Assembly: GCA_001786955.1 (NCBI GenBank)
Contig: MFUM01000002.1
Span: forward strand, 3,923-64,225
DNA length: 60,303 bases
DNA from: Candidatus Nomurabacteria bacterium RIFCSPHIGHO2_12_FULL_42_19
Lineage (GTDB): Bacteria; Patescibacteriota; Minisyncoccia; Phycocordibacterales; UBA9973
Direction of reading: 5' to 3'
Made by a program: the position numbers and the translations under genes. The first letter of the stretch is position 1. Every line of letters starts with the position of its first letter. Shown here piece after piece: positions 1 to 28,207 of this stretch. Under the pieces are notes generated by a model that had not been told where the DNA came from, ran no database searches, and was given only the letters and a program-made list of their open reading frames with translations.

Positions 1-73
1 GCGTTGCGGAGACAGTGAAGAGTCTCCGCGAGTTTGTAGGCATTTGACCACGGTTTCAAGAAACAGTTTCCAT

Positions 74-114
74 GCCGGTGCGCTCCTCACGGGAGCCCGC
101 CGGCACCCTTTTTT
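74..114 (+). terminator. Rho-independent terminator of a GC-rich gene lying left of the window
   Basis: 13-bp stem GCCGGTGCGCTCC/GGAGCCCGCCGGC (1 mismatch, 1 G-U), 5-nt loop, followed by ACCC and a T6 run. Confidence 0.6.
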
Positions 115-151
115 ATCTATATAAATAAAGCCTTATTTTTCATATAAATCA

Positions 152-180
152 TTGACATTTTGAGATAAGTGTGATATACT
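152..180 (+). promoter_or_regulatory. Sigma70-type promoter TTGACA-N17-TATACT for the GC-rich lipoprotein gene
   Basis: TTGACA at 152..157, TATACT at 175..180 preceded by TGa; lies in an AT-rich patch between GC-rich blocks. Confidence 0.6.
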
Positions 181-233
181 ATATGCGAGTTTGTGTGTGC
201 GCGTTCATGGTGAACGAGGCGCATTTGAAAGGG

Positions 234-1025
234 ATGAAGATGCAGAAAATCGTGCGACTGATGATGGTGTTGGCAGTTCTCGGGTTGGTGGCCGCGTGCG
301 CCACCGAGACGTCGACCAAGCCGCAGGAGCAGACCGCGCCGACTGCGCAAACGGCTCCCGCTCCCGAAGCGCCCGCAGCCAAGCCGAGCGGCTCGACCGA
401 GGCGGACTTCATCCGCGCCGGCATCGAGGCCGAGCTCCGCATGCGCGAGCTCGAGAAGAAGCTCACGCCGGACGAGAAGCGCCGCAATTACGACATCCGC
501 AAGGCCGTGCTCGACGTCGCGGTGACCGATTACACCGGCGCGAACAAGGAATTGCCCGAATGGGTGCGCGCCGCTTACGACGCCTACGAGACCGAGGACT
601 ACACCAAGGGCCACGTCGCCTTCCAGCGCTCATTCGGGTGGGGAACGGGCACGTTCCAAGGCAAGCCGTTCTATTGGTTTGCCTTCACGAACACCGACGC
701 CTGGATGCAGTTCGGTTTCTCGGTGAAGCTCGATGGCAACACCAAGAAGGTGGCGCTGAGTCGGAAGGACGGATTTGGCCACGAGTGGGAGGTGGAATTG
801 AATTCGGATCCCACGAAGGGCTACGGTGTCCCCGCAGCGACCTGGATGGGAGTCACGAACGATTGGATCGAACGTGACTGCACCAAGCCGAGGGGTGAAG
901 CCTGCGACATCGGCAGTGCGCTCGACCGCGCCGTCGCCGAGATGAACTCGGCGCTTGGGCTCAAGATGACAGTGAAGGGGAAGTTCCCGTGGGAACCTCT
1001 CCTTATACCTTACGTCGAGAAGTAA
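234..1025 (+). CDS. GC-rich predicted lipoprotein, function unknown (foreign composition)
   Basis: ORF 171..1025. Internal ATG 234 (or 240, with AAAGGG 6 nt upstream) gives MKMQKIVRLMMVLAVLGLVAAC, a signal peptide plus lipobox Cys. Followed by a Pro/Ala/Thr-rich linker. GC-rich third codon positions. Confidence 0.7.
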   Translation: MKMQKIVRLMMVLAVLGLVAACATETSTKPQEQTAPTAQTAPAPEAPAAKPSGSTEADFIRAGIEAELRMRELEKKLTPDEKRRNYDIRKAVLDVAVTDYTGANKELPEWVRAAYDAYETEDYTKGHVAFQRSFGWGTGTFQGKPFYWFAFTNTDAWMQFGFSVKLDGNTKKVALSRKDGFGHEWEVELNSDPTKGYGVPAATWMGVTNDWIERDCTKPRGEACDIGSALDRAVAEMNSALGLKMTVKGKFPWEPLLIPYVEK

Positions 1026-1083
1026 GACCCGCGCCCGGCGGTTCCGAGGCAAGGTGTGATGGACACCATAACCATCAAAAAAA

Positions 1084-1120
1084 CCAGCAACGCTCGAAAG
1101 GAGTACGTTCGCTGGTTTTT
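1084..1120. terminator. Bidirectional hairpin terminator between the lipoprotein gene and rmuC
   Basis: A-run, stem CCAGCAACG/CGTTCGCTGG (one bulge), then a T5 run. Confidence 0.55.
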
Positions 1121-2992: not shown

Positions 2993-3029
2993 CAGGTTTA
3001 TTTCCCCAAGTGATGCTTCAGGGTATAAA

Positions 3030-3061
3030 CCCCCACACCTATTTATAAATAGGTGTGGGGG
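3030..3061 (-). terminator. 32-nt perfect palindrome downstream of the exonuclease gene
   Basis: CCCCCACACCTATTTATAAATAGGTGTGGGGG, followed on the minus strand by TTTATA. Confidence 0.55.
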
Positions 3062-3070
3062 TAAATCCAG

Positions 3071-4393: not shown

Positions 4394-4996
4394 ATGAATA
4401 CAGTCAATCTTCTAATCCGCTTAGTGGAACACCATCAGGTTTTAGTATATTTCTTGATTTTTGTAGGCATAATTTTTGAGGGCGAGTTTATTTTATTATG
4501 CACCGGGATTCTGATGTATTTGGGTGCCCTGAACTTTTACTTTACTTTTATTTTTGTCCTGATGGGAGGCTTGTCTAAAACTTTTTTGGGTTACTATATA
4601 GGCAGTTTTATTTACAACAAATGGAATCATATAAAATTTTTCAAATATATTGAAAAACGTGTTTTTAATATAATGCCTCATTTTGAGCAGAAGCCTTTCT
4701 GGTCTATTTTTGTTTCAAAATTTATCATGATGAATCATATGGTCATTGTCTATGCCGGTTATAAAAAGATAGATTTTAAAAAATATCTGAAAGCGGAAAT
4801 TTTAGCTACGGCAATCTGGGCGCCGCTTTTATTATCGCTCGGTTATGTTTTCAGTTATACTGCGCTACAGGTTAGCCGGGAGATTTGGAGGTTTTCAATG
4901 GTGGTTCTGGTCTTGTTTATAATGTTTATTCTTTTTGACAAGTTGGTATCTTGGCTTTATGAGTTGTTTGAAGAATTTTATAATGACAACAATTAA
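4394..4996 (+). CDS. DedA/VTT-family membrane protein
   Basis: Multi-TM protein; FEGE...G motif region and C-terminal ...AIWAPLLLSLGYVF resemble the DedA family. Confidence 0.6.
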   Translation: MNTVNLLIRLVEHHQVLVYFLIFVGIIFEGEFILLCTGILMYLGALNFYFTFIFVLMGGLSKTFLGYYIGSFIYNKWNHIKFFKYIEKRVFNIMPHFEQKPFWSIFVSKFIMMNHMVIVYAGYKKIDFKKYLKAEILATAIWAPLLLSLGYVFSYTALQVSREIWRFSMVVLVLFIMFILFDKLVSWLYELFEEFYNDNN

Positions 4997-5891
4997 AAAA
5001 TTAAATCAAAAATTAATTACGCACGATGGCTCTTTCCACACGGATGATATTTTTGCGGCGGCTACGCTCTCCATTTATCTTGAAAAGAAAGGAGAAACTT
5101 TTGAAATTATTCGCACAAGGAATGAGGAAATCATCAAAAACGGCGATTATGTTTTTGACGTGGGAGGATTTTATGACGAAGAAAAGAACAGATTTGACCA
5201 TCATCAAGTTAACGGTGCGGGCAAGCGTGACAATGGCATTGAATACGCTTCTTTTGGCTTGGTGTGGAAAAAATTCGGGGGAGAATTGTGTAACGGGGAA
5301 ACGGAAGCTGAGTTAATTGACCAAAAGTTGGTTCAACCTATAGATGCTGGAGATAATGGTGTTAATTTAGTTGAATTAAAAAGAGAAGTAATACCCTATT
5401 TTATACAATATGCTTTCAATGCCTTCCGTCCGGGATGGAAAGATGTCAGTGAAAAGGCTCTATTTGTTGGATTTTTAGAGTGTGTGCAAATGGCCAAAAA
5501 CATTTTAACCAGAGAAATAGGGCGAGCCCGAGATATTACAGAAGCTCAAAAAATTATTTTTACAATTTACAGAAATGCTGAGAATAAAAAAATTATCGTT
5601 TTGGATAAAAAATATCCATGGGAAGAACTAATGCAAAATTATCCCGAACCAATTTTTGTGGTTTATCCTAGAATTGACAATTCGTGGGGGGTTGAAGGAG
5701 TGGCGGCAAGTAAATTTTCCGTTGAAAAGAGAAAAAAATTTCCAGATACCTGGGCGGGACTTAGAAATGGAGAGTTACAGGAAATCTCCAAAGTTCCCGA
5801 TGCCTTATTCTGCCATCGCGGACTTTTTATGGCTGTTGCTAAATCAAAAGAAGGCGCTGTCAAACTGGCGCAAATTGCGCTAGAATCTTAA
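4983..5891 (+). CDS. MYG1/UPF0160 family metal-dependent hydrolase
   Basis: ITHDGSFHTDDIFA, DVGG..D....RFDHHQ. Start ATG 4983 overlaps the end of the DedA gene. Confidence 0.8.
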   Translation: MTTIKKLNQKLITHDGSFHTDDIFAAATLSIYLEKKGETFEIIRTRNEEIIKNGDYVFDVGGFYDEEKNRFDHHQVNGAGKRDNGIEYASFGLVWKKFGGELCNGETEAELIDQKLVQPIDAGDNGVNLVELKREVIPYFIQYAFNAFRPGWKDVSEKALFVGFLECVQMAKNILTREIGRARDITEAQKIIFTIYRNAENKKIIVLDKKYPWEELMQNYPEPIFVVYPRIDNSWGVEGVAASKFSVEKRKKFPDTWAGLRNGELQEISKVPDALFCHRGLFMAVAKSKEGAVKLAQIALES

Positions 5892-6892: not shown

Positions 6893-8368
6893 ATGCCTGA
6901 TATTATGGAAAAAAAGTATTACCCGACAATTGGTCTTGAAATACACGCGGAATTAAAGACAAACACCAAGATGTTTTGCGCGTGCAAGAATGACCCGGAT
7001 GAGGAAAAACCGAATGTAAATATTTGCCCGGTCTGCATGGCGCATCCGGGAGCATTGCCGGTGCCGAATAAAAAAGCCATTGAAAATGTCATAAAAGTTG
7101 GCTTGGCATTAGGCGGCCAAATTGCCGATTTCACGGAGTTTGATCGCAAGAATTATTTTTATCCGGATATTCCGAAAGGCTACCAGATTTCCCAATATAA
7201 ATATCCGATAGTTTCCGGCGGAAAATTGCTGGGAACAGATATTACTCGTGTGCATTTGGAAGAGGATACAGGAACAAATAAACACATAGATAGCCCCCAG
7301 GTCGGACCTGTGGGCTCCCACAGGTCCGACCTGGGGGCGAATGGGTATTCGCTGATAGATTTCAATCGTGCCGGAGTGCCGCTGATGGAGCTGGTAACAG
7401 AACCGGCAATTCACAGCGCCAAAGAAGCCAGTGATTTTGCCCGTGAACTGCAACTTCTTTTGTGTTATCTTGATGTATCGGAAGCGAATATGGAGAAAGG
7501 AGAAATGAGGGTAGAAGCGAATATTTCCGTTTCACCGGATCCGAAAATTCTTGGCACGAAAGTAGAAGTAAAAAATTTAAATTCTTTCAGAAGCGTCGAG
7601 CGTGCCATCAAATACGAGCTTAATAGAATGACAAAGCTTTTAGAGGAAGGATTGGGAAATGAAATAGTGCAGGAGACTCGTGGCTGGGATGAAAGCAAAA
7701 GTGAAACTTTTTCCCAAAGAAAAAAAGAGGGGAGCGCGGATTACCGCTATTTTCCCGACCCTGATTTGCCGAAAATGAAATTGCATGAAGCATTTGATTT
7801 GGAAAAAATAAAAAAAGAATTGCCGGAACTGCCGGGGGCAAAGCGAGAGAGGTATAGAAAAGATTTTGGAATAAAAGATGAGGATATAGAAGTATATATA
7901 AATGGTTTGGAACTTGCCAAATGGTTTGAAGATGTGGCAAAAATCTTGGCCCAAAAAGATAGTATAAAGATTCTTTCTAACTACGTTACCTCAGATTATC
8001 TTGGATTCAAAAAGAATAACTCAGACATAAAATTACCAAGCTCTAAAAATTTTGTTGAACTTATAAATTTAGTTACAGAAAACAAAATCTCTTCTCGCGC
8101 CGCAAAAGATATTTTGGCAATGATTGTGATAAAAGATGAATCGCCGTTAAAAATCGCGACAGAAAAAGGTTTACTGCAAAGTAGTGACCCGGAAGCATTA
8201 AAAAAAATCGCGCAAAAAATTATTGATGCCAATCCGAAAACCGTAGCGGATTATAAGGGCGGAAAAGAACAGGCCCTTATGTCTCTCGTGGGAGTTATAA
8301 TGAAGGAAACCAAAGGCTCGGCGAATCCATCGGTTGCCAAGCAATTATTAATAGATTTATTGAAATGA
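6893..8368 (+). CDS. gatB: Asp/Glu-tRNA amidotransferase subunit B, carrying an in-frame palindromic insert
   Basis: IGLEIHAEL, CPVC, HLEEDTG, NRAGVPLMELVTEP, and a C-terminal YqeY-like domain. Confidence 0.95.
   Translation: MPDIMEKKYYPTIGLEIHAELKTNTKMFCACKNDPDEEKPNVNICPVCMAHPGALPVPNKKAIENVIKVGLALGGQIADFTEFDRKNYFYPDIPKGYQISQYKYPIVSGGKLLGTDITRVHLEEDTGTNKHIDSPQVGPVGSHRSDLGANGYSLIDFNRAGVPLMELVTEPAIHSAKEASDFARELQLLLCYLDVSEANMEKGEMRVEANISVSPDPKILGTKVEVKNLNSFRSVERAIKYELNRMTKLLEEGLGNEIVQETRGWDESKSETFSQRKKEGSADYRYFPDPDLPKMKLHEAFDLEKIKKELPELPGAKRERYRKDFGIKDEDIEVYINGLELAKWFEDVAKILAQKDSIKILSNYVTSDYLGFKKNNSDIKLPSSKNFVELINLVTENKISSRAAKDILAMIVIKDESPLKIATEKGLLQSSDPEALKKIAQKIIDANPKTVADYKGGKEQALMSLVGVIMKETKGSANPSVAKQLLIDLLK
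7294..7337. repeat. 44-nt perfect palindrome inside gatB
   Basis: CCCCCAGGTCGGACCTGTGGG-ct-CCCACAGGTCCGACCTGGGGG: 21-bp arms, about three quarters G+C, translated as SPQVGPVGSHRSDLGA. Confidence 0.9.
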
Positions 8369-9369
8369 ATAAAGATAAATTAATTGAAACGGTTGCCCGC
8401 CTTGTATCTCCGCCCAAAGGCATTCTTGCCATCGACGAAAGCTTGAGTACCTGCAACAAGCGTTTTGAAAAACTCGGCGTGCCGACGACCGAGGAAAAGC
8501 GCAGGGAATACCGCGAACTCCTGATAACAGCGCCGGAAATGGAGAAATATATTTCCGGTTATATTCTTTTTGACGAAACCATCAGGCAATCCGCAAAAGA
8601 CGGCAAAAGTTTTACTTCTATACTGCAGGCGAAAGGAATAGATATCGGCATAAAAGTTGACCAAGGCTTGATTGATTTCTCGTCGCATCCGGGAGAAAAA
8701 ATTACGCAAGGATTAGAAGGGCTTTCAAGCAGACTCAAGGAATATAAGAATATGGGCGCTACTTTTGCCAAGTGGCGCGTGGTTTATAGCATCGGAGAAA
8801 ATACTCCTTCCGGGGATTGTATGAAAGAAAATGCGGTTATTTTGGTAAAATACGCTCTCATCTGCCAGGAACTGGATATTGTCCCGATTATTGAACCGGA
8901 AGTTTTAATAGATGGCGACCATACAATAGAAAAGTGTTATGAAATTACAGCAGGCAATTTTGACGTGCTTTTTTCCGAATTACGGGATTCAAATGTTTTT
9001 ATTTCCGGCATTGTTTTAAAAACCAGCATGGTGCTCTCCGGGAAAGATGCCGAAGACAAATCTTCTTCCGCTGAAAAAGTCGCGCAGATGACATTACGGT
9101 GCCTGAAGGAACATGTGCCGGAGCATATCGGAGGAATAGTTTTTCTTTCCGGCGGACAAGGCGACGAAGAAGCGGCAATGAATTTGAATACTATGCACCA
9201 GATGGGTTCTCTTCCATGGCCGCTCTCATTTTCTTACGGTCGGGCGATTCAAAATCCCGCTTTTCAGAGTTGGGCGAAGAGTCCTGCTGATATTTCCGGC
9301 GCGCAAGCCCTTCTTCTTGCCGCGGCAAAAAATAACAGCCAGGCTTCAATAGGACAATATAAAAAATAA
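8365..9369 (+). CDS. fba: Class I fructose-bisphosphate aldolase
   Basis: GILAIDES..T..KRFE, IEPEVL, VLKTSMV (Schiff-base Lys region), FSYGRA. Confidence 0.85.
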   Translation: MNKDKLIETVARLVSPPKGILAIDESLSTCNKRFEKLGVPTTEEKRREYRELLITAPEMEKYISGYILFDETIRQSAKDGKSFTSILQAKGIDIGIKVDQGLIDFSSHPGEKITQGLEGLSSRLKEYKNMGATFAKWRVVYSIGENTPSGDCMKENAVILVKYALICQELDIVPIIEPEVLIDGDHTIEKCYEITAGNFDVLFSELRDSNVFISGIVLKTSMVLSGKDAEDKSSSAEKVAQMTLRCLKEHVPEHIGGIVFLSGGQGDEEAAMNLNTMHQMGSLPWPLSFSYGRAIQNPAFQSWAKSPADISGAQALLLAAAKNNSQASIGQYKK

Positions 9370-16020: not shown

Positions 16021-16341
16021 ATGGCTACAAAGCTATATGTAGGGGGACTCCCTTACAGCACCCAAGAAGACGCTCTTAAAGAGCTCTTCGCGCAGGCCGG
16101 AAACGTTGTTTCCGCTGTGATTATTATGGACAAAATGTCCGGTCGTTCAAAAGGTTTTGGGTTCGTAGAAATGTCATCTCAGGATGAGGCTCAAAAGGCT
16201 ATCTCTATGTTCAATGACCAAGAATTTGAAGGACGTAAACTTACTGTCAACGAAGCTCGCCCAATGGAAGCTAGACCGCCAAGAAGCGGAGGCAATGACC
16301 GAGGCGGATACGGCAGCGGAGGCGGACGAAGAGAATATTAA
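16021..16341 (+). CDS. RRM-type RNA-binding protein with a Gly/Arg-rich tail
   Basis: RNP2 LYVGGL, RNP1 KGFGFVEM, tail RSGGNDRGGYGSGGGRR. Confidence 0.9.
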   Translation: MATKLYVGGLPYSTQEDALKELFAQAGNVVSAVIIMDKMSGRSKGFGFVEMSSQDEAQKAISMFNDQEFEGRKLTVNEARPMEARPPRSGGNDRGGYGSGGGRREY

Positions 16342-16365
16342 TTTAATCTTTGATAAGAGAATTAA

Positions 16366-21360: not shown

Positions 21361-22725
<1,365 letters not shown>

Positions 22726-22791
22726 ACCTCACCCCGTCTGCTTAATGCATCCACCCCTCTCCTTGGCAAGGAGAGGGGCAAGGGGTGAGGT
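22726..22791. repeat. Repeat family B copy 1 (atpD-atpC spacer)
   Basis: ACCTCACCCC...CCCCTCTCCTTGGCAAGGAGAGGGG...GGGGTGAGGT nested palindrome. Confidence 0.85.
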
Positions 22792-22799
22792 AATCACAC

Positions 22800-23249
22800 A
22801 TGACAAATAAACAATTAAAACTGAAAATAGTCACACCAGAGCGCTTAGTGCTAGAAGAAATGGTTGACCAGGTCAGCTTACCGACCATTTTAGGCGAAAT
22901 TACGATTTTGCCGGACCATATTCCTTTAATTACAGGACTGGCGTCCGGAGATGTTGTTGCCTATGCAAATGGCGAACATGTCCCGATGGCTGTAGTGGGC
23001 GGATTTGTGGAAATTAAAAAAGGCGAAGCCGGGCATACAGAAGTCGCTGTCTTAGCCGACTTTGCCGAGCATCTCGCGGAAATTTCGGACGAGAAAATTG
23101 AGGAGGCCAAAGCCCGTGCCGAAGAATTGAAAAAGTTAATGGAAAACAAAGAACATGTTGACTTTGAGCACTTTGAAGCCGAACTAGAACGCTCATTAAC
23201 TAGAGTTAGGATAGCAGATAAGTGGAGATTAAAAAAATACAGAAAATGA
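22800..23249 (+). CDS. atpC: F0F1 ATP synthase subunit epsilon
   Basis: LKLKIVTPE...; beta-sandwich plus C-terminal helices; operon position. Confidence 0.9.
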   Translation: MTNKQLKLKIVTPERLVLEEMVDQVSLPTILGEITILPDHIPLITGLASGDVVAYANGEHVPMAVVGGFVEIKKGEAGHTEVAVLADFAEHLAEISDEKIEEAKARAEELKKLMENKEHVDFEHFEAELERSLTRVRIADKWRLKKYRK

Positions 23250-23324
23250 AAAATTGCCGACTCGCCTCGCTGAAGTTATGGCGAAGCGGGCAAATGGAGG
23301 ACGAGAAAGTATAGAAAATAAAAA

Positions 23325-24047
23325 ATGTCTAAATTTTATGTTGTTGCGACTCCGATAGGGAACTTGGGGGACATTACGCTCCGGGCTATTGAGACGCTCA
23401 AAAGCGTTGATTTGATATTATGTGAGGATACGCGGGTCACGAAAAAACTTTTAGATAAATACGATATACATAAACCGACGATGAGTTATCCATCCGACGA
23501 TATCGTCGGAAAAAACTACAGACAGAGCAAGCTTGCCCAGAGCCCCAAGCTCAATAAAATTTTTGAATTATTGGAAGAAGGAAAAGATTTGGCCTTGGTG
23601 TCGGACGCAGGCACGCCGGGAATCTCCGACCCGGGAGCAATGCTTGTTTCTCAAATAAAAACTCATTTCAGCCATGACGTAAATGGGGAAGTTAAAGTTA
23701 TTCCGATTCCGGGAGCTTCGGCGGTTATTACCGCGTTGTCTGCGTCAGGATTACCTATTCACGAGTTTACATTTTTAGGTTTTCTGCCGCACAAAAAAGG
23801 CAGGGAAACGTTATTTAAAGAAATTACGCAGGCTAAAAGGACGATGATATTTTACGAGTCTCCGCACAGGATTTTAAAAACCTTGGAATCGCTCCAGAAA
23901 TTTTGCCCTGATAAGAAAGTCTGCATTGCGCGCGAACTGACGAAAATTTATGAAGAATTTAAAATTGGAACTCCGGCAGAAATTTTGGAATATTTTAATA
24001 AAAATAAAGATAAACAAAGAGGAGAGTTTACGGTAATAGTTGCCTAA
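23325..24047 (+). CDS. rsmI: 16S rRNA (cytidine1402-2'-O)-methyltransferase
   Basis: YVVATPIGNLGDITLRA, LVSDAGTPGISDPG, FLGFLP, YESPHR. Confidence 0.92.
   Translation: MSKFYVVATPIGNLGDITLRAIETLKSVDLILCEDTRVTKKLLDKYDIHKPTMSYPSDDIVGKNYRQSKLAQSPKLNKIFELLEEGKDLALVSDAGTPGISDPGAMLVSQIKTHFSHDVNGEVKVIPIPGASAVITALSASGLPIHEFTFLGFLPHKKGRETLFKEITQAKRTMIFYESPHRILKTLESLQKFCPDKKVCIARELTKIYEEFKIGTPAEILEYFNKNKDKQRGEFTVIVA
23493..23510. repeat. 18-nt perfect palindrome inside rsmI
   Basis: TCCGACGATATCGTCGGA (encodes SDDIVG). A second palindrome GCAAGCTTGC lies at 23526..23535. Confidence 0.7.
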
Positions 24048-24086
24048 AAAAGTGCAGGGCGGTCTCGTGGTTAGCGAGCCGCCCTG
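24046..24086 (-). terminator. Terminator of the GC-rich HicB-like ORF, abutting the rsmI stop
   Basis: On the minus strand: CAGGGCGG, 16 nt, CCGCCCTG, then CACTTTTTT. Confidence 0.7.
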
Positions 24087-24109
24087 TGTGTGATGCAGGA
24101 CACGATACC

Positions 24110-24337
24110 CTACTTGTCGTTGTGGTGGTCTCGTTCCATACGGAGACCACCAAAGCTGTTTGGGATTTTGACCTCTTCGAGTCCCCAGTCGAGGACCCGA
24201 CAGGCCAGCTTTCCCATCGCCTGTGCTTGCTGGACGGCTTCAGCATCAGTTCTTGCCGTCGGCAAGAGTGTTGGTAGCCTTTCGGTTGCCGCCAACTCTC
24301 TGCCTGTCTCCAAACAGAATGCTACGTATGTAGCCAT
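24110..24337 (-). CDS. GC-rich small protein, HicB/DUF1902-like antitoxin fold (tentative)
   Basis: GGGAGG at 24345..24350, 7 nt before the ATG. MATYVAFCLETG...LPTLLPTARTDAEAVQQAQAM fits the beta-strand plus LP..A.T.EEA pattern of HicB N-domains. No HicA partner seen. Confidence 0.5.
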   Translation of the reverse strand: MATYVAFCLETGRELAATERLPTLLPTARTDAEAVQQAQAMGKLACRVLDWGLEEVKIPNSFGGLRMERDHHNDK

Positions 24338-24382
24338 TTAGGAACCTCCCTTCACTTGGTAATATAAACTATCCTAAAAATT

Positions 24383-26329
24383 TTACAATAGGTCCTCCGG
24401 GTCAACGAATACGTCAAAGTTGGGCGGAAGAGCGGCGAGTTTCTGGAGCAGGTTTTCATCTATGGACGAGCCGGCGGAAATTTCCGGCAAGGACCACTTT
24501 TTCGGGTCTATCTTTATCAGCGCATTGGTGGCATATTTGCCTTTGAGCCGCGCGATAAATCCGCTGAAAATTTCAGGATTGTATTCTTTAAAAATTTCTT
24601 CCAATACTTTTTTTGCTTTTATTGTTTGTTCTTTATCGCCTAAATGCGTAATTTTTATGAAACGCTTGAATGGCGGATAATCTAGATTTCTTCTGTCTTC
24701 TAATTCTTCCCGCACGAAAGACAATAAATTTTCCATTTTAATTGCCATAATTGCCGGGTCATTTTCTTTCTTAGTTTGAATAATAAGTTTTTCGGTTGTG
24801 CTGCCAATTACCGAAAGCATGATTTGAATGATTTTTTCACTCATTTTAAAATTCGGTATGTTCCAAAGCGAATCAAAAGAAGCGATAATTGATAACGAAA
24901 CTTTGTTTTTTAAATAGAAAAATGCCATTTCGGTGCCTATCAATATCGATCCGGGATTTTCTTCAAACTCCCTGATTATTTTTTCTGCGCCCTTGGCTGT
25001 TTTCGCAGAATCTTTATCTAATTTAAAAACCTCAACTTTTGTAAAATTTTCTTTAATAGATTCATATACAGTATCGGTGCCTATACCAAGAGGCACCAGA
25101 TTCCAGCTTCCGCAAGCGGCGCAGACGATTTCTCCATTCAAATCTGTTTCGCACCGGTTGCAGACAAATATCCTTTTTTTGCCCTGATGAGACGAATAAA
25201 GAACCAAAGGCGACCCGCATTTTTCACAGTCCACTATCTCGCCGCAGTCTTTGCATATAGTCATCGTCGCCAATCCTTTCCTCAATGAGAAAATAAAAAC
25301 ATTTTTCTTTTTGGTTGTCGTATTTTTAATTTCTTCCAGGCTTTTATCTTCCAAGATTTTAAATTTTTTCTCTTTATTTAAAATTTCTATTTCTCCGTCA
25401 AAATTAATTCTAAAAGAAAGCGGATGCATTGGATTTAATCCGTCCGTTTCTTGTCTCGCAATACTCTCATAACGAAGTAATGAATCGCCCAAGATGAATT
25501 TCGCATTGATTTTTGCCGCAAAAAGCTCTATAAAAAATCTCAAATCAAAATGAGGTTTTGCAATCATTTTATAAGCATTAGAACTTTCATGTTCCGCTAT
25601 GACGGTTCCGATATCATATCGTGGAATAGATAAAAATGGCGCAGTTCCGAGTATCAGCACCGGGTGAGCGAGAGTTATTATTTGCTCGATTTTTTTAATA
25701 ATTTTTTTTGAACTTGATCCCCCGTATATGGCAAAAGCGAATTTCTCGATTCCTTTAGAAAGAGATTCTTCAAAAATTCTTATATCGTATTCGGTTGGCA
25801 ATACTATGAAAACGGATTTTTTCAGGGCAAAAGATCCGCGAATTAAAGTTTTATAAGCCGAGATGCGGTCTTCAAGCGGCGCCTGGAAAATCAGCTTCTC
25901 GGGCTTTACCTCACCCCCGACCCCTCTCCTTGCCAAGGAGAGGGGTGCTGAAAGCGGGGTGAGGTTTGTATTCTTGAATTTAGCTATTTTGTCATAATTT
26001 TCCCGCAAGACAGTCGGAATTAAAGAAGTAATTCCGTCATTTTTGCCCGAAATAAAATATTTACTGGTTTCAATCGCCGAATCAAGATATTTTTTCAAAA
26101 AAATCGAACGTTCTTTTACTTCGCTTATTTTTTTCAAATTGAAAGACAAACCCTTTATGTTTGATTTTGCGAGAGCGACATCTTCCGAAGAGACAACTAA
26201 TCCTAAAATTTTTTTATTGCGCAAAGGGATAACCACGATACTTCCATTTGGAATATCCTGCGCGGTGAAATAAGTCAAGTCTTCTTTCCAAGCTCCCTTT
26301 TTAAGCGGGATTACCGTCACGATCTTCAT
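24383..26329 (-). CDS. priA: Primosomal protein N' (PriA helicase), carrying an in-frame repeat insert
   Basis: Cys-rich Zn insertion CKDCGEIVDCEKCGSPLV...CNRC...CAACGS; helicase lobes; C-terminal YPPF. Confidence 0.9.
   Translation of the reverse strand: MKIVTVIPLKKGAWKEDLTYFTAQDIPNGSIVVIPLRNKKILGLVVSSEDVALAKSNIKGLSFNLKKISEVKERSIFLKKYLDSAIETSKYFISGKNDGITSLIPTVLRENYDKIAKFKNTNLTPLSAPLSLARRGVGGEVKPEKLIFQAPLEDRISAYKTLIRGSFALKKSVFIVLPTEYDIRIFEESLSKGIEKFAFAIYGGSSSKKIIKKIEQIITLAHPVLILGTAPFLSIPRYDIGTVIAEHESSNAYKMIAKPHFDLRFFIELFAAKINAKFILGDSLLRYESIARQETDGLNPMHPLSFRINFDGEIEILNKEKKFKILEDKSLEEIKNTTTKKKNVFIFSLRKGLATMTICKDCGEIVDCEKCGSPLVLYSSHQGKKRIFVCNRCETDLNGEIVCAACGSWNLVPLGIGTDTVYESIKENFTKVEVFKLDKDSAKTAKGAEKIIREFEENPGSILIGTEMAFFYLKNKVSLSIIASFDSLWNIPNFKMSEKIIQIMLSVIGSTTEKLIIQTKKENDPAIMAIKMENLLSFVREELEDRRNLDYPPFKRFIKITHLGDKEQTIKAKKVLEEIFKEYNPEIFSGFIARLKGKYATNALIKIDPKKWSLPEISAGSSIDENLLQKLAALPPNFDVFVDPEDLL
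25908..25965. repeat. Repeat family B copy 2 (inside priA)
   Basis: ACCTCACCCCcgaCCCCTCTCCTTGCCAAGGAGAGGGGtgctgaaagcGGGGTGAGGT, translated as TPLSAPLSLARRGVGGEV. Confidence 0.85.
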
Positions 26330-27379: not shown

Positions 27380-27442
27380 AAAATTTTTAACAAGGACGAT
27401 CTTTGGGGAAATTTCTTAAGGACCGTCCTTAGGAAAAAATTT

Positions 27443-28207
27443 ATGATTTCACAACATTTAGACAAAAATAACCTGCATCATGCATATTTGATAGAAGGTG
27501 CGCGTGGCGAGATTGTTCCAGAAATCGTAAAATTCCTGAAAAGTTTGGGCATAAATACCGTTGGCAATCCTGATTTTTGCCATATCGTAATTGATAATTT
27601 TAAAATTGATGAGGCATTTGACCTGCGCGCCATGTCTTCAAATAAAAGTTTCTCTTCTGTTAAAAAAGTATTTGTAATTTGCGTCAATAGTTTTTCTCTG
27701 GATGCCCAGAATGTCCTGCTTAAGATGTTTGAGGAGCCGATACAAAATACTCATTTTTTCCTGATTGTTCCGGATGCCAATGCTCTTTTAAAAACTCTCG
27801 TTTCCAGATTTTATTTAATTAAGCCGAAAGCGGAAGCGGGCGATGAATTAGAAGCGAAAAAATTTCTTGCCATGCCTTTAAAAAACAGAATTGATTTTAT
27901 TAAAGAATTATTGATTGAACCGGAAGAAAAAGATGAAGAGGGGAATGAAATTATCGCTTTAGATTCCACTCGTTCTAAAGCATTAAAATTTTTAAATGCG
28001 TTGGAGGGTGCTTTACATCGCAAGTTCCTGAAAAATTCTGCCGGCTTTACCCTTCCCCTTCGGGGTGGGACTTACGCCGCTCAGAATTTTTCAGGAACTT
28101 GCTTTGAGCATTTCTTCAAAGTCCGAGAATTTCTGCGTATGCCCGGTTCGTCCACGAAAAGCCTGATGGAATCAGTGGCATTAATTATACCTATTTTTAA
28201 AAATTAA
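27443..28207 (+). CDS. holB: DNA polymerase III delta'-like clamp-loader subunit, carrying an in-frame repeat insert
   Basis: LHHAYLIEG, KVFVI, LLKMFEEP, TLVSRF (SRC-like motif). Confidence 0.65.
   Translation: MISQHLDKNNLHHAYLIEGARGEIVPEIVKFLKSLGINTVGNPDFCHIVIDNFKIDEAFDLRAMSSNKSFSSVKKVFVICVNSFSLDAQNVLLKMFEEPIQNTHFFLIVPDANALLKTLVSRFYLIKPKAEAGDELEAKKFLAMPLKNRIDFIKELLIEPEEKDEEGNEIIALDSTRSKALKFLNALEGALHRKFLKNSAGFTLPLRGGTYAAQNFSGTCFEHFFKVREFLRMPGSSTKSLMESVALIIPIFKN
28021..28101. repeat. Repeat family C copy 2 (81-nt element with perfect 20-bp TIRs inside holB)
   Basis: CAAGTTCCTGAAAAATTCTG ... CAGAATTTTTCAGGAACTTG. The core is the reverse complement of the core at 10835..10876. Confidence 0.9.

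Follow-up and report, generated by a model that had tools for sequence, protein, structure and literature searches.

Among the closest described counterparts of the repeat reported here are the Rickettsia palindromic elements (RPEs), sequences of about 100-150 bp which are confined to Rickettsia and its relatives and for which no protein-coding parent is known; in a reduced AT-rich genome they occupy intergenic DNA and are also inserted, with the frame kept, in housekeeping genes that are unrelated to each other (Ogata et al. 2000 Science 290:347, via PMC10969869). In the REP/REPIN-RAYT system dispersed hairpin repeats occur together with genes for HUH tyrosine transposases (PMC3116915, PMC3733652). 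Known Vsr-like or EDxHD homing endonucleases, such as I-Bth0305I (PMC3239194) and those of fractured genes (PMC2677866), reside in group I introns or between the halves of split inteins and home into one cognate gene (PMC3239194, PMC2677866). VSR, DUF559, DUF2726 and PDB 3r3p have been grouped in one nuclease clade (PMC3424549).

Here we compare with these systems a 58-nt palindromic repeat found in a window of 60,303 nucleotides, the whole stretch of DNA that was analysed from Candidatus Nomurabacteria, a tiny bacterium of groundwater. DUF559, which will be of importance below, is a very widespread domain of unknown function that is usually annotated as a very-short-patch-repair endonuclease. 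Intragenic in-frame cases are also known among MITE-type elements (ERIC, Nezha and others). Finally, the small dispersed repeats (SDRs) of heterocystous cyanobacteria, described by Elhai and colleagues in 2008, are reported to be hairpin repeats of only 21-27 nt that nest in each other, in larger repeats and occasionally in genes; we know of no protein reported to be associated with them.

Two copies of a nested palindrome

The gene that hosts the first copy, the replication gene priA (24383-26329, minus strand, 648 aa), was identified by its match to solved PriA structures (4nl4, E 4e-23) and by the source names of its orthologues. The first-pass annotation had described a 58-nt nested palindrome that is read through in this gene, and the sequence at 25908-25965 is exactly as it was quoted. 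The forward-strand layout is ACCTCACCCC-CGA-CCCCTCTCCTTGCCAAGGAGAGGGG-T-GCTGAAAGC-GGGGTGAGGT; the canonical orientation is that of the minus strand, on which the reverse complement reads ACCTCACCCC-GCTTTCAGC-A-CCCCTCTCCTTGGCAAGGAGAGGGG-TCG-GGGGTGAGGT. In this orientation copy A, a complete element in the priA frame (CM R1, 84 bits, E 6e-20), is composed of the 5' terminal arm ACCTCACCCC (25956-25965), a small hairpin termed hp2 (GCTTTCAGC, 25947-25955) that differs from its commonest form GCCTTCGGC by one compensated pair change, the main hairpin hp1, which is a 25-nt palindrome (CCCCTCTCCTTGGCAAGGAGAGGGG, 25921-25945), and the 3' terminal arm GGGGTGAGGT (25908-25917), all on the minus strand. 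Copy A is translated as PriA residues 123-141 (LTPLSAPLSLARRGVGGEV). As regards expression of the insert, the relevant peptide is the tryptic peptide spanning NLTPLSAPLSLAR.

The second copy that had been reported is confirmed at 22726-22791 on the plus strand, between the ORFs 21370-22725 and 22800-23249. These are atpD, encoding the ATP synthase beta subunit (plus strand, assigned by Pfam), and atpC, encoding the epsilon subunit (plus strand, assigned by synteny with the sister contig L121). Copy B is a 66-nt non-coding element immediately 3' of the atpD stop (CM R1, 65 bits, E 9e-15) and has the same 10-nt inverted-repeat arms ACCTCACCCC and GGGGTGAGGT as copy A, an hp1 25-mer (22754-22778, plus strand) identical to that of copy A, and a longer hp2 region (GTCTGCTTAATGCATCCA, 22736-22753). 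A central C/G change had been seen between the two inner palindromes. There is none: the apparent difference arose because the copies lie on opposite strands and are reverse-complementary to each other on the chromosome. These are the only two copies in the window. The inner 25-mer, with up to three mismatches allowed, found no match in 100 dinucleotide-preserving shuffles of the window, and the folding energy of both copies, about -42 kcal/mol (z = -5.5), was not equalled by any of 200 shuffles.

Comparison at the sequence level with the syntenic sister contig L121 shows both copies to be insertions relative to the sister genome. The gene order is the same in the two contigs, yet the atpD-atpC spacer measures 74 nt in the window as compared to 4 nt in L121, and the priA linker of L121 contains a different palindrome. 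An 83-nt palindrome in a holB-like ORF (28020-28102) was also considered as a lineage-specific insert and was rejected, since the sister orthologue has the same peptide.

Copy A is located in the linker that joins the N-terminal domain of PriA to the first helicase strand. At the insert site this linker is hypervariable, with lengths of 15-29 aa in 120 orthologues, and modelling of PriA, as suggested in the first-pass annotation, maps the insert to a linker that is predicted to be disordered: in the AlphaFold2 model (mean pLDDT 83) residues 116-143 show no secondary structure and residues 123-139 have pLDDT values below 50. Translational bypass or excision at the priA block was considered and dropped, as no stop codon interrupts the block, which is in frame, and its 58 nt are not divisible by 3.

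Spread of the repeat and DUF559 genes between its ends

The family comprises at least 120 genomic loci in Cyanobacteria, Bacteroidota, Chloroflexota, CPR (candidate phyla radiation), Leptospirales and others, cultured isolates included, at least 117 metagenomic loci on contigs of 32-71% GC, and 19 loci on viral contigs; the commonest element length among the metagenomic loci listed is 58 nt. Many of the loci come from MAGs, the taxonomy of which can be contaminated. The initial framing of the element as a speciality of CPR-type genomes cannot be maintained, the same element being present in many phyla. The proposed search of related genomes did reveal both coding and intergenic copies, but provides counts only in the form of the above lower bounds. 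Outside priA, in-frame copies were found in purD (two), in comF-like phosphoribosyltransferase genes (three) and in leuS, uvrB and dus. The original reading of the block as a selfish palindromic element is supported, in part by family copies on other low-GC contigs that occur both intergenically and in frame within conserved genes. On either strand of the element two frames out of three are open, and the favoured frame yields a Pro/Ser/Gly/Arg-rich peptide in either orientation. In Bacteroidota relatives the terminal inverted repeats extend to about 50 nt.

New here is that the ends of the element are shared with DUF559 gene units. The arrangement ACCTCACCCC-hairpin ... hairpin-GGGGTGAGGT also brackets small genes for DUF559 (Vsr-like nuclease) proteins: DUF559 ORFs (Pfam E 1e-31 to 1e-35) lie within six inverted module pairs whose members are 450-700 bp apart, and the only Pfam matches of the flanked genes are DUF559 (PF04480) and MTES_1575. 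In 1.84 Mb of collected loci each of the nine DUF559 ORFs has a module at most 142 nt away on one side or both, and for eight of them the opposite side also has one, at most 472 nt away. Further homologues, on viral contigs and in CPR, were selected by protein alone. Of the 19 full-length ones on viral contigs 18 have exact flanking inverted repeats of 13-29 nt made of hairpins; the 19th is cut at a contig end, which leaves 18 that are testable. In each of these 18 cases the repeat surpasses the best of 100 shuffles, and with the sole exception of L267 it stands in wide excess over a displaced control. Many of the viral-contig loci are closely related, and there are about six independent flank types. 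All three DUF559 loci selected in CPR (Zambryskibacteria, Paceibacterota and Nomurabacteria) are bounded by both ends, and the genes are free-standing in intergenic spacers in the pth-S1, recA-efp and trxB-ftsZ neighbourhoods. The acidic residues D44, E55 and D57 and the histidine H61 are invariant in the element-borne DUF559 proteins. The recA-efp spacer, when compared among relatives with 93-96% identical RecA, is empty with 42 nt in L348, contains a small palindrome with 103 nt in L347 and a DUF559 unit with 489 nt in L339, so that closely related genomes differ in whether the unit occupies this orthologous site.

Because the same ends bracket DUF559 genes we read the 58-mer as a miniature, ORF-less member of a selfish family whose full-length units carry DUF559 between the same ends, and we regard this as the probable explanation. 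The selfish palindrome of the first-pass annotation is retained in this reading, and what is added to it is a protein-coding parent, likely the DUF559 unit with the same ends. The ends of the family would be formed by the 10-bp inverted repeat ACCTCACCCC ... GGGGTGAGGT, each arm adjoining the GC-rich hairpin hp1 (CCCCTCTCC-loop-GGAGAGGGG), with the second small hairpin hp2 on one side of the unit. A full-length unit would run from arm, hp2 and hp1 through a DUF559 gene for a Vsr-like PD-(D/E)xK nuclease of about 115 aa to a further hp1 and arm, and the 58-mer would be such a unit with only one hp1 and without the interior, in the manner of a MITE or a solo LTR. That DUF559 mobilises the family is inferred and has not been shown. 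The nuclease may recognise or cut the hairpin ends and so drive the copying of full and miniature units, be it by a break-induced (homing-like) or by an unknown cut-and-paste route, and genic copies would survive only if they land in frame within tolerant surface loops. To our knowledge strand transfer is not known for a PD-(D/E)xK nuclease of about 115 aa, and the integration step would be without precedent.

With respect to the described systems, the precedent of the RPEs invoked in the first-pass annotation holds in that the elements work alike, whereas membership in the same family is not supported. Like the RPEs, the repeat is a palindrome with intergenic copies and with copies in frame in genes, its inserts are tolerated at protein surfaces or in loops, as in the linker of PriA, and it contains no transposase. 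It differs from them in its size of 58-66 nt, in its Nomurabacteria (CPR) rather than Rickettsiales host, in its defined three-helix fold, in its cross-phylum occurrence and in its full-length DUF559 relatives. With REP/REPIN sequences it shares the short GC-rich hairpin repeats in many dispersed copies and the candidate mobilising gene that is recognised by flanking inverted repeats, with protein subgroups matching different hairpin sequences. However, the associated protein is a Vsr-like PD-(D/E)xK nuclease (Pfam DUF559) and not a Y1 HUH transposase, the ends are ACCTCACCCC / GGGGTGAGGT and carry no GTAG/CGTC tag (tag definition PMC3733652), and the copies are also genic and have the same sequence in different phyla, while a given REP is limited to a species or genus. 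Terminal inverted repeats, small size, lack of an ORF, multiple copies and a longer relative with the same ends are features of MITEs as well. Different from MITEs, no target-site duplication was found at the junctions of the window, L122, L144, L150, L151, L203, L214, L184, L336 and L339, the longer relatives encode the DUF559 nuclease, which has no known transposase activity, instead of a DDE transposase, and 58 nt is at or below the usual lower size limit for MITEs. A shared target motif was not seen at the junctions either. The Vsr-like homing endonucleases belong to the same nuclease clade, the residues D44/E55/D57/H61 being retained in the present proteins, and are likewise small selfish nuclease genes that are present or absent at orthologous sites, as in the recA-efp spacer; the present genes, in contrast, are free-standing without intron or intein, have hairpin inverted repeats, occupy varied intergenic sites and have miniature derivatives. 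Similar to the SDRs, many cyanobacterial matches of the element are embedded in larger repeats. A possible resemblance to the BoxC repeats of E. coli is mentioned here without any claim.

Searches of the literature returned no report of DUF559, PF04480 or COG2852 as a mobile element and none of palindromic or in-frame elements in CPR/Patescibacteria, and element sequence strings gave only unrelated full-text matches, e.g. to eukaryotic primers. When E. coli genomes, phages and plasmids were searched by BLAST with copy B, nothing usable resulted, the query being short and of low complexity.

Alternative readings

But could the nuclease gene instead home into palindromes that already existed? 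The palindrome would then be the primary mobile entity, moved by another enzyme or through some process of the host, for example template switching during replication, DUF559 would be a secondary invader that uses the hairpin as its landing pad, and the priA block would owe DUF559 nothing. Some IS elements target REP sequences and thus provide an analogy for such a landing pad. We think this unlikely, yet several observations keep it under consideration. Miniatures far outnumber DUF559 units in the collected loci (about 250 modules versus nine ORFs), and there is no DUF559 ORF in the window, the rest of the genome being outside the scan. Moreover, the unit in L339 has the appearance of a gene that, together with inner arms of its own, is nested between the two hp1 halves, and the polarity of the modules relative to the DUF559 gene is inconstant, being inward at most loci and outward at L265, L273 and L036. 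Then again, the hairpin sequence on the viral contigs varies with the DUF559 subgroup, as one would expect of a protein and ends that evolve together as a unit. A pure homing gene would also need homologous flanks, whereas the DUF559 units sit in unrelated intergenic sites, and no alternative enzyme was seen beside the modules.

A role as a host-beneficial cis element that is spread by selection, be it a terminator or attenuator hairpin, a stabiliser of the atp-operon mRNA or a protein-binding site, appears improbable to us. The sister genome manages with its 4-nt atpD-atpC spacer, even though copy B lies between two genes of one operon and several CPR copies are located in atp-operon spacers. 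Each of the two window copies has the sense orientation of its local gene, but in the comF-like gene family both orientations occur, copies lie inside many unrelated coding regions, and no T-run follows copy A or copy B in the sense direction. The hairpins do show compensatory changes. In the three-helix model 98.6% of cells pair, double changes were counted in hp2 (CG 35, GC 6, GU 2) and in distal hp1 (UA 33, GC 6, GU 3), and the observed covariation score was not attained in any of 500 shuffles. Processes at the DNA level can, however, also keep the arms of a palindrome alike, and no Rfam family was matched: only tRNAs and noise were returned at gathering thresholds for the window and 18 loci, as well as at E up to 10 for 22600-26100.

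Hardly any room remains for the view, already largely refuted, that the peptide is native to PriA and functionally selected and that its likeness to the atp spacer is secondary. Alignment of orthologues had been proposed as a check on a lineage-specific indel, and most of the 120 are indeed without the peptide; a scattered distant minority, however, carries the same or a related element. P0107, whose PriA is 62% identical (loci L122 and L174), carries the same element with site, frame and orientation unchanged, and weaker variants are present in P0027, P0050, P0053-55 and P0103. Yet these carriers are scattered among non-carriers across the PriA tree, the closest orthologue (80% identity) lacks the copy A peptide and has its own palindrome at the site, and the region of the insert is predicted to be disordered. 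In addition, conservation of the nucleotide block greatly exceeds that of the coding DNA on either side, and the block is found again in non-coding DNA and in other genes. We therefore take the same-site carriers to reflect a hot spot at which the element was repeatedly inserted or retained, and not a native PriA peptide; vertical inheritance may partly contribute to the recurrence at the same protein sites. An assembly or chimera artefact, which would have refuted the first-pass annotation, has next to nothing in its favour: GC-rich hairpins can in principle misassemble, but no supporting evidence was found, the priA reading frame is intact across the insert, and the identical insert is present in 90%-cluster members from NCBI (KKS04369.1, Nomurabacteria GW2011_GWA2_41_25), JGI, ENA and Logan, in dozens of contigs, and is therefore not an artefact of one assembly.

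Meaning for CPR genomes and DUF559 proteins

Streamlined CPR genomes, about 1 Mb in size, are shown to harbour several families of very small palindromic parasites, and these have entered essential genes (priA, purD, leuS, uvrB, dus and gatB-type cases) without breaking them. In-frame palindromic insertion has until now been documented mainly for Rickettsia. A 58-nt repeat that is nearly unchanged across phyla of 32% to 71% GC is tied to a concrete candidate enzyme, which makes both a function of the large DUF559 family and a mechanism for hairpin repeats without RAYT genes open to test. In practical terms, alignments of proteins are affected by spurious length differences and low-complexity peptides that stem from such inserts, and the annotation of MAGs by spurious small ORFs. 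The elements could serve as strain markers, and a nuclease that recognises a defined DNA hairpin is of potential interest as a tool.

We put forward, as a tentative proposal of which we are not yet convinced, that DUF559 proteins may be the nucleases of an unrecognised class of minimal mobile elements. A unit of this class would be a single gene for a PD-(D/E)xK nuclease of about 115 aa with hairpin-bearing inverted repeats on both sides, and such units would spawn miniatures of 45-70 nt, cross phyla and enter essential CPR genes in frame. If true, this class would be the nuclease counterpart of the RAYT-REPIN system, and it would explain the GC-rich 'GEGxGVR / PLSLxRRGxGGEV' peptides that are scattered in predicted proteomes.

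The palindromes in priA and in the atpD-atpC spacer

The block at 25908-25965 lies in the minus-strand ORF 24383-26329, whose 648-aa product is PriA, as shown by its homology to PriA proteins of solved structure (4nl4, E 4e-23) and by how its orthologues are named. Its sequence, ACCTCACCCC-CGA-CCCCTCTCCTTGCCAAGGAGAGGGG-T-GCTGAAAGC-GGGGTGAGGT, and its translation, as PriA residues 123-141 (LTPLSAPLSLARRGVGGEV), confirm the first-pass annotation, and the second copy that had been placed between the upstream atpD (Pfam ATP-synt_ab) and the downstream atpC is present at 22726-22791, occupying most of the 74-nt spacer. The single central C/G change reported between the copies, however, is a strand effect, since the priA copy, once reverse-complemented, contains exactly the 25-mer of the atp copy. 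The two copies are thus inverted on the chromosome, each being sense-oriented to its own gene. The canonical order of the element is the arm ACCTCACCCC, a small hairpin (hp2) and a 25-nt hairpin (hp1), with 3 nt separating the latter from the closing arm GGGGTGAGGT. A three-helix fold is predicted for both copies (about -42 kcal/mol, z = -5.5), no chance match to the 25-mer arose in 100 shuffles, and no further copy lies in the window.

Both copies are insertions. In a sister organism with a PriA 80% identical (contig L121) the gene order is unchanged, the atpD-atpC spacer measures only 4 nt and the priA linker holds a different palindrome, AAGGACGGTCCTT-N14-AAGGACCGCCCTT. Alignment of 120 PriA orthologues (62-99% identity) places the insert in a hypervariable linker of 15-29 residues, bordered by ...ENYDKIAKF on one side and K-x-EKLLFQ on the other, and in an AlphaFold2 model (68 input sequences; mean pLDDT 83, pTM 0.81) residues 123-139 have pLDDT values below 50 and residues 116-143 are without secondary structure. 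Alignment and model both agree with the earlier reading of the block as an in-frame insert. An assembly artefact is ruled out, since the insert is unchanged in every full-length member of the PriA 90% cluster, drawn from independent NCBI (Candidatus Nomurabacteria bacterium GW2011_GWA2_41_25), JGI, ENA and Logan assemblies. The evidence thus shows that a copy of a widespread hairpin element has been inserted in priA, where it is translated and the protein structure tolerates it.

Distribution and fold of the element family

The family is not specific to the candidate phyla radiation (CPR). Scanning one genome per species with the pattern ACCTCACCCC-N(1-30)-CCCCTCTCCTTG returned at least 120 loci, where we estimate about 2 chance matches in 596 Gb; hosts among the matches listed are Nostocales and other Cyanobacteria, Hymenobacter, Chitinophagaceae and other Bacteroidota, Chloroflexota, Nomura-, Falkow- and Gottesmanbacteria, Leptospirales, Armatimonadota and others, cultured isolates included. 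At least 117 metagenomic loci, on contigs of 32-71% GC, carry the hp2-first form; among the matches listed, hp1 has its 3' arm in 107 of 117 distinct copies, the closing arm is present too in 69, and the modal length is 58 nt, that of the priA copy. Viral contigs (IMG/VR) contribute 19 loci, and an Rfam search matched no family to the element. On L124, a related contig from the CPR, about five variant copies fall within 16.7 kb, and four of these lie between genes in short spacers. Hymenobacter-type loci (L014, L056, L104) show intermediate-size forms in which two inverted 50-nt hairpin ends enclose only about 45-95 nt; these are REPIN-like doublets of the family.

Across 44 aligned copies, 98.6% of cells in the three-helix model are base paired, and pairing falls to 47-62% when the 3' partners are shifted by 1-3 columns as a control. 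Double changes occur in hp2 (CG 35, GC 6, GU 2 and one UA, the window copy) and in the distal pair of hp1 (UA 33, GC 6, GU 3, AU 1), the observed covariation score being reached by none of 500 shuffles; the hp2 variant follows contig GC, with GGCTTCGCC in high-GC and GCCTTCGGC in low-GC contigs. The structure is conserved beyond the positions fixed by the search patterns. As far as sequence can tell, this conservation with its compensatory changes would suggest that the element is recognised as a cruciform or as a folded single strand; arm-to-arm correction within the palindromes could contribute to the conserved pairing as well.

Palindromes within coding sequences

In ORFs of low-GC contigs, with host genes identified by Pfam, the element lies deep inside PurD at an identical position in two organisms, in the same loop of a ComF-like phosphoribosyltransferase in three (one sense, two antisense), and within LeuRS, UvrB and Dus ORFs. 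The usual reading frame, xAC-CTC-ACC-CC..., yields (N/H/D)-L-T-P...G-E-V in either orientation, and a TGA stop closes one of the frames on each strand. Every coding copy examined measures 58 nt, so the net change cannot be 58 nt alone, and no target-site duplication was found that would explain it. The one junction seen to resemble a long target duplication belongs to a copy read in frame within a MiaB/RimO-like ORF of Chitinophagaceae (L048, about 5081-5106), with the peptide GNFFSL on both sides.

Small palindromes collect in the linker of priA, which is either a hot spot or a graveyard for them. P0107, a PriA of only 62% identity (loci L122 and L174), has the element of the window PriA at the identical position, with frame and orientation preserved and a compensated change in hp2 (GCCTTCGGC versus GCTTTCAGC in the window copy), and two further linkers (P0027, P0055) contain variant copies. 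Three other recurrent linker peptides, KDGPWGNSLKDRP, SEARPNxLGLAS and LKGQSLRESPQGLSLEK, probably mark other palindrome families, with confirmation at the DNA level at least for KDGPWGNSLKDRP. The latter two, seen in scattered lineages (P0004, P0006, P0015, P0020, P0039, P0064, P0080 and P0051, P0057, P0106), probably represent two more families, judged at the peptide level only. All four insert types are scattered across the neighbour-joining PriA tree. The second family (KDGPW-type), AAGGACGGTCCTT-N14-AAGGACCGTCCTT, has intact copies in the sister contig L121 at 8748-8787 and 16305-16344, in the priA linker (peptide KDGPWGNSLKDRP) and an atp-operon spacer, a further copy in L200 (about 4820-4860), and a degenerate intergenic copy in the window at 27392-27430, between mreB-like and holB-like genes.

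Other palindromes were seen in the window. The gatB ORF (6893-8368, plus strand) contains at 7293-7338 a GC-rich palindrome whose 22-nt arms match perfectly (GCCCCCAGGTCGGACCTGTGGG-CT-CCCACAGGTCCGACCTGGGGGC) and which is translated in frame as SPQVGPVGSHRSDLGA; at that point Thermotoga maritima GatB (3al0_B) shows a gap of 11 residues, and no second copy occurs in the sequences collected. A coding palindrome in the holB-like ORF 27443-28207 (28020-28102, perfect 21-nt arms around CCCTTCCCCTTCGGGGTGGG) was rejected as a recent lineage-specific insert, since the sister orthologue has a corresponding peptide. Two hairpins between convergent genes, a perfect palindrome with 17-nt arms at 3029-3062 and CAGGGCGG...CCGCCCTG at 24055-24086, resemble bidirectional terminators and do not belong to the element family. 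Window positions 1-1100 are 51% GC overall and in parts above 70%, versus about 40% elsewhere. This edge of the window may be of foreign origin; the ORF at 171-1025 has no Pfam match.

DUF559 units and the nature of the element

The ends of the priA element were shown to be those of units bearing a DUF559 gene. A search for inverted module pairs 300-4000 bp apart found six, spaced 450-700 bp, that enclose an ORF matching Pfam DUF559 (PF04480; E 1e-31 to 1e-35), from Bacteroidota, one 66% GC contig and one 41% GC contig. Conversely, a DUF559 HMM run over 261 collected sequences (1.84 Mb) found nine ORFs, all with a module at most 142 nt away on at least one side and eight with another within 472 nt on the other side. 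In locus L184 the layout is ACCTCACCCC-GCCTCCGGC-A-(CCCCTCTCC ttgttaa AGAGAGGGG)-45 nt-ORF (117 aa)-12 nt-(CCCCTCGCC ttagcaa GGAGAGGGG)-CA-GGGGTGAGGT, which is the 58-mer carrying a gene flanked by an hp1 copy on each side; in Bacteroidota the inverted ends are 50 nt long. The proteins keep D44, E55, D57 and H61, and DUF559 has been grouped with Vsr and the intron homing endonuclease I-Bth0305I (PMC3424549). In three loci (L265, L273, L036) the modules point outward from the gene, hp1-CC-GGGGTGAGGG-gene-CCCTCACCCC-GG-hp1, whereas they point inward in the others. A hairpin-bounded Zambryskibacteria unit (L334, 1425-2397) holds, besides DUF559, a further ORF of 117 aa (1916-2269) that runs on the opposite strand and has no Pfam match; it may encode a cargo or partner protein.

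The association also holds in viral-contig loci picked by DUF559 alignment and not by the element. Of 19 full-length close homologues one was cut at the contig end; the remaining 18 all have exact inverted repeats of 13-29 nt made of GC-rich hairpins, the distance to the ORF being 45-90 nt in most and reaching about 250 nt in L261. For every locus, none of 100 shuffles produced a repeat as long, and the displaced control was exceeded by a wide margin in all loci but L267. The hairpin sequence varies with DUF559 subgroup, L265 and L273 carrying the priA-type family; five distant homologues (at most 30% identity) had no flanking inverted hairpin repeats. Among the homologues of the L184 protein are some whose names place them in Zambryskibacteria, Paceibacterota and Nomurabacteria, and both ends bound the gene in all three loci fetched. 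Among relatives with RecA 93-96% identical, the recA-efp spacer is empty (42 nt), holds a small related palindrome (103 nt) or holds a DUF559 unit (489 nt).

We infer that the DUF559 nuclease may propagate both the full units and the miniature forms without an ORF. Such propagation leaves unexplained the absence of a DUF559 gene from the window, the lack of target duplications and the inverted module polarity in three loci, and we know of no integration chemistry for such a nuclease. The main alternative, that the gene merely homes into pre-existing palindromes, is not excluded, but we consider it unlikely. In the literature searched, palindromic elements lying in frame have not been described for CPR genomes, nor has DUF559 been reported to belong to a mobile unit. 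Rickettsia palindromic elements, REPIN-RAYT, MITEs and Vsr-like homing endonucleases are the closest known systems, yet the element misses at least one defining feature of each, and it is therefore classed as a variant of small non-autonomous palindromic mobile DNA. As such it is of an already known kind, while its autonomous partner is possibly a new one.
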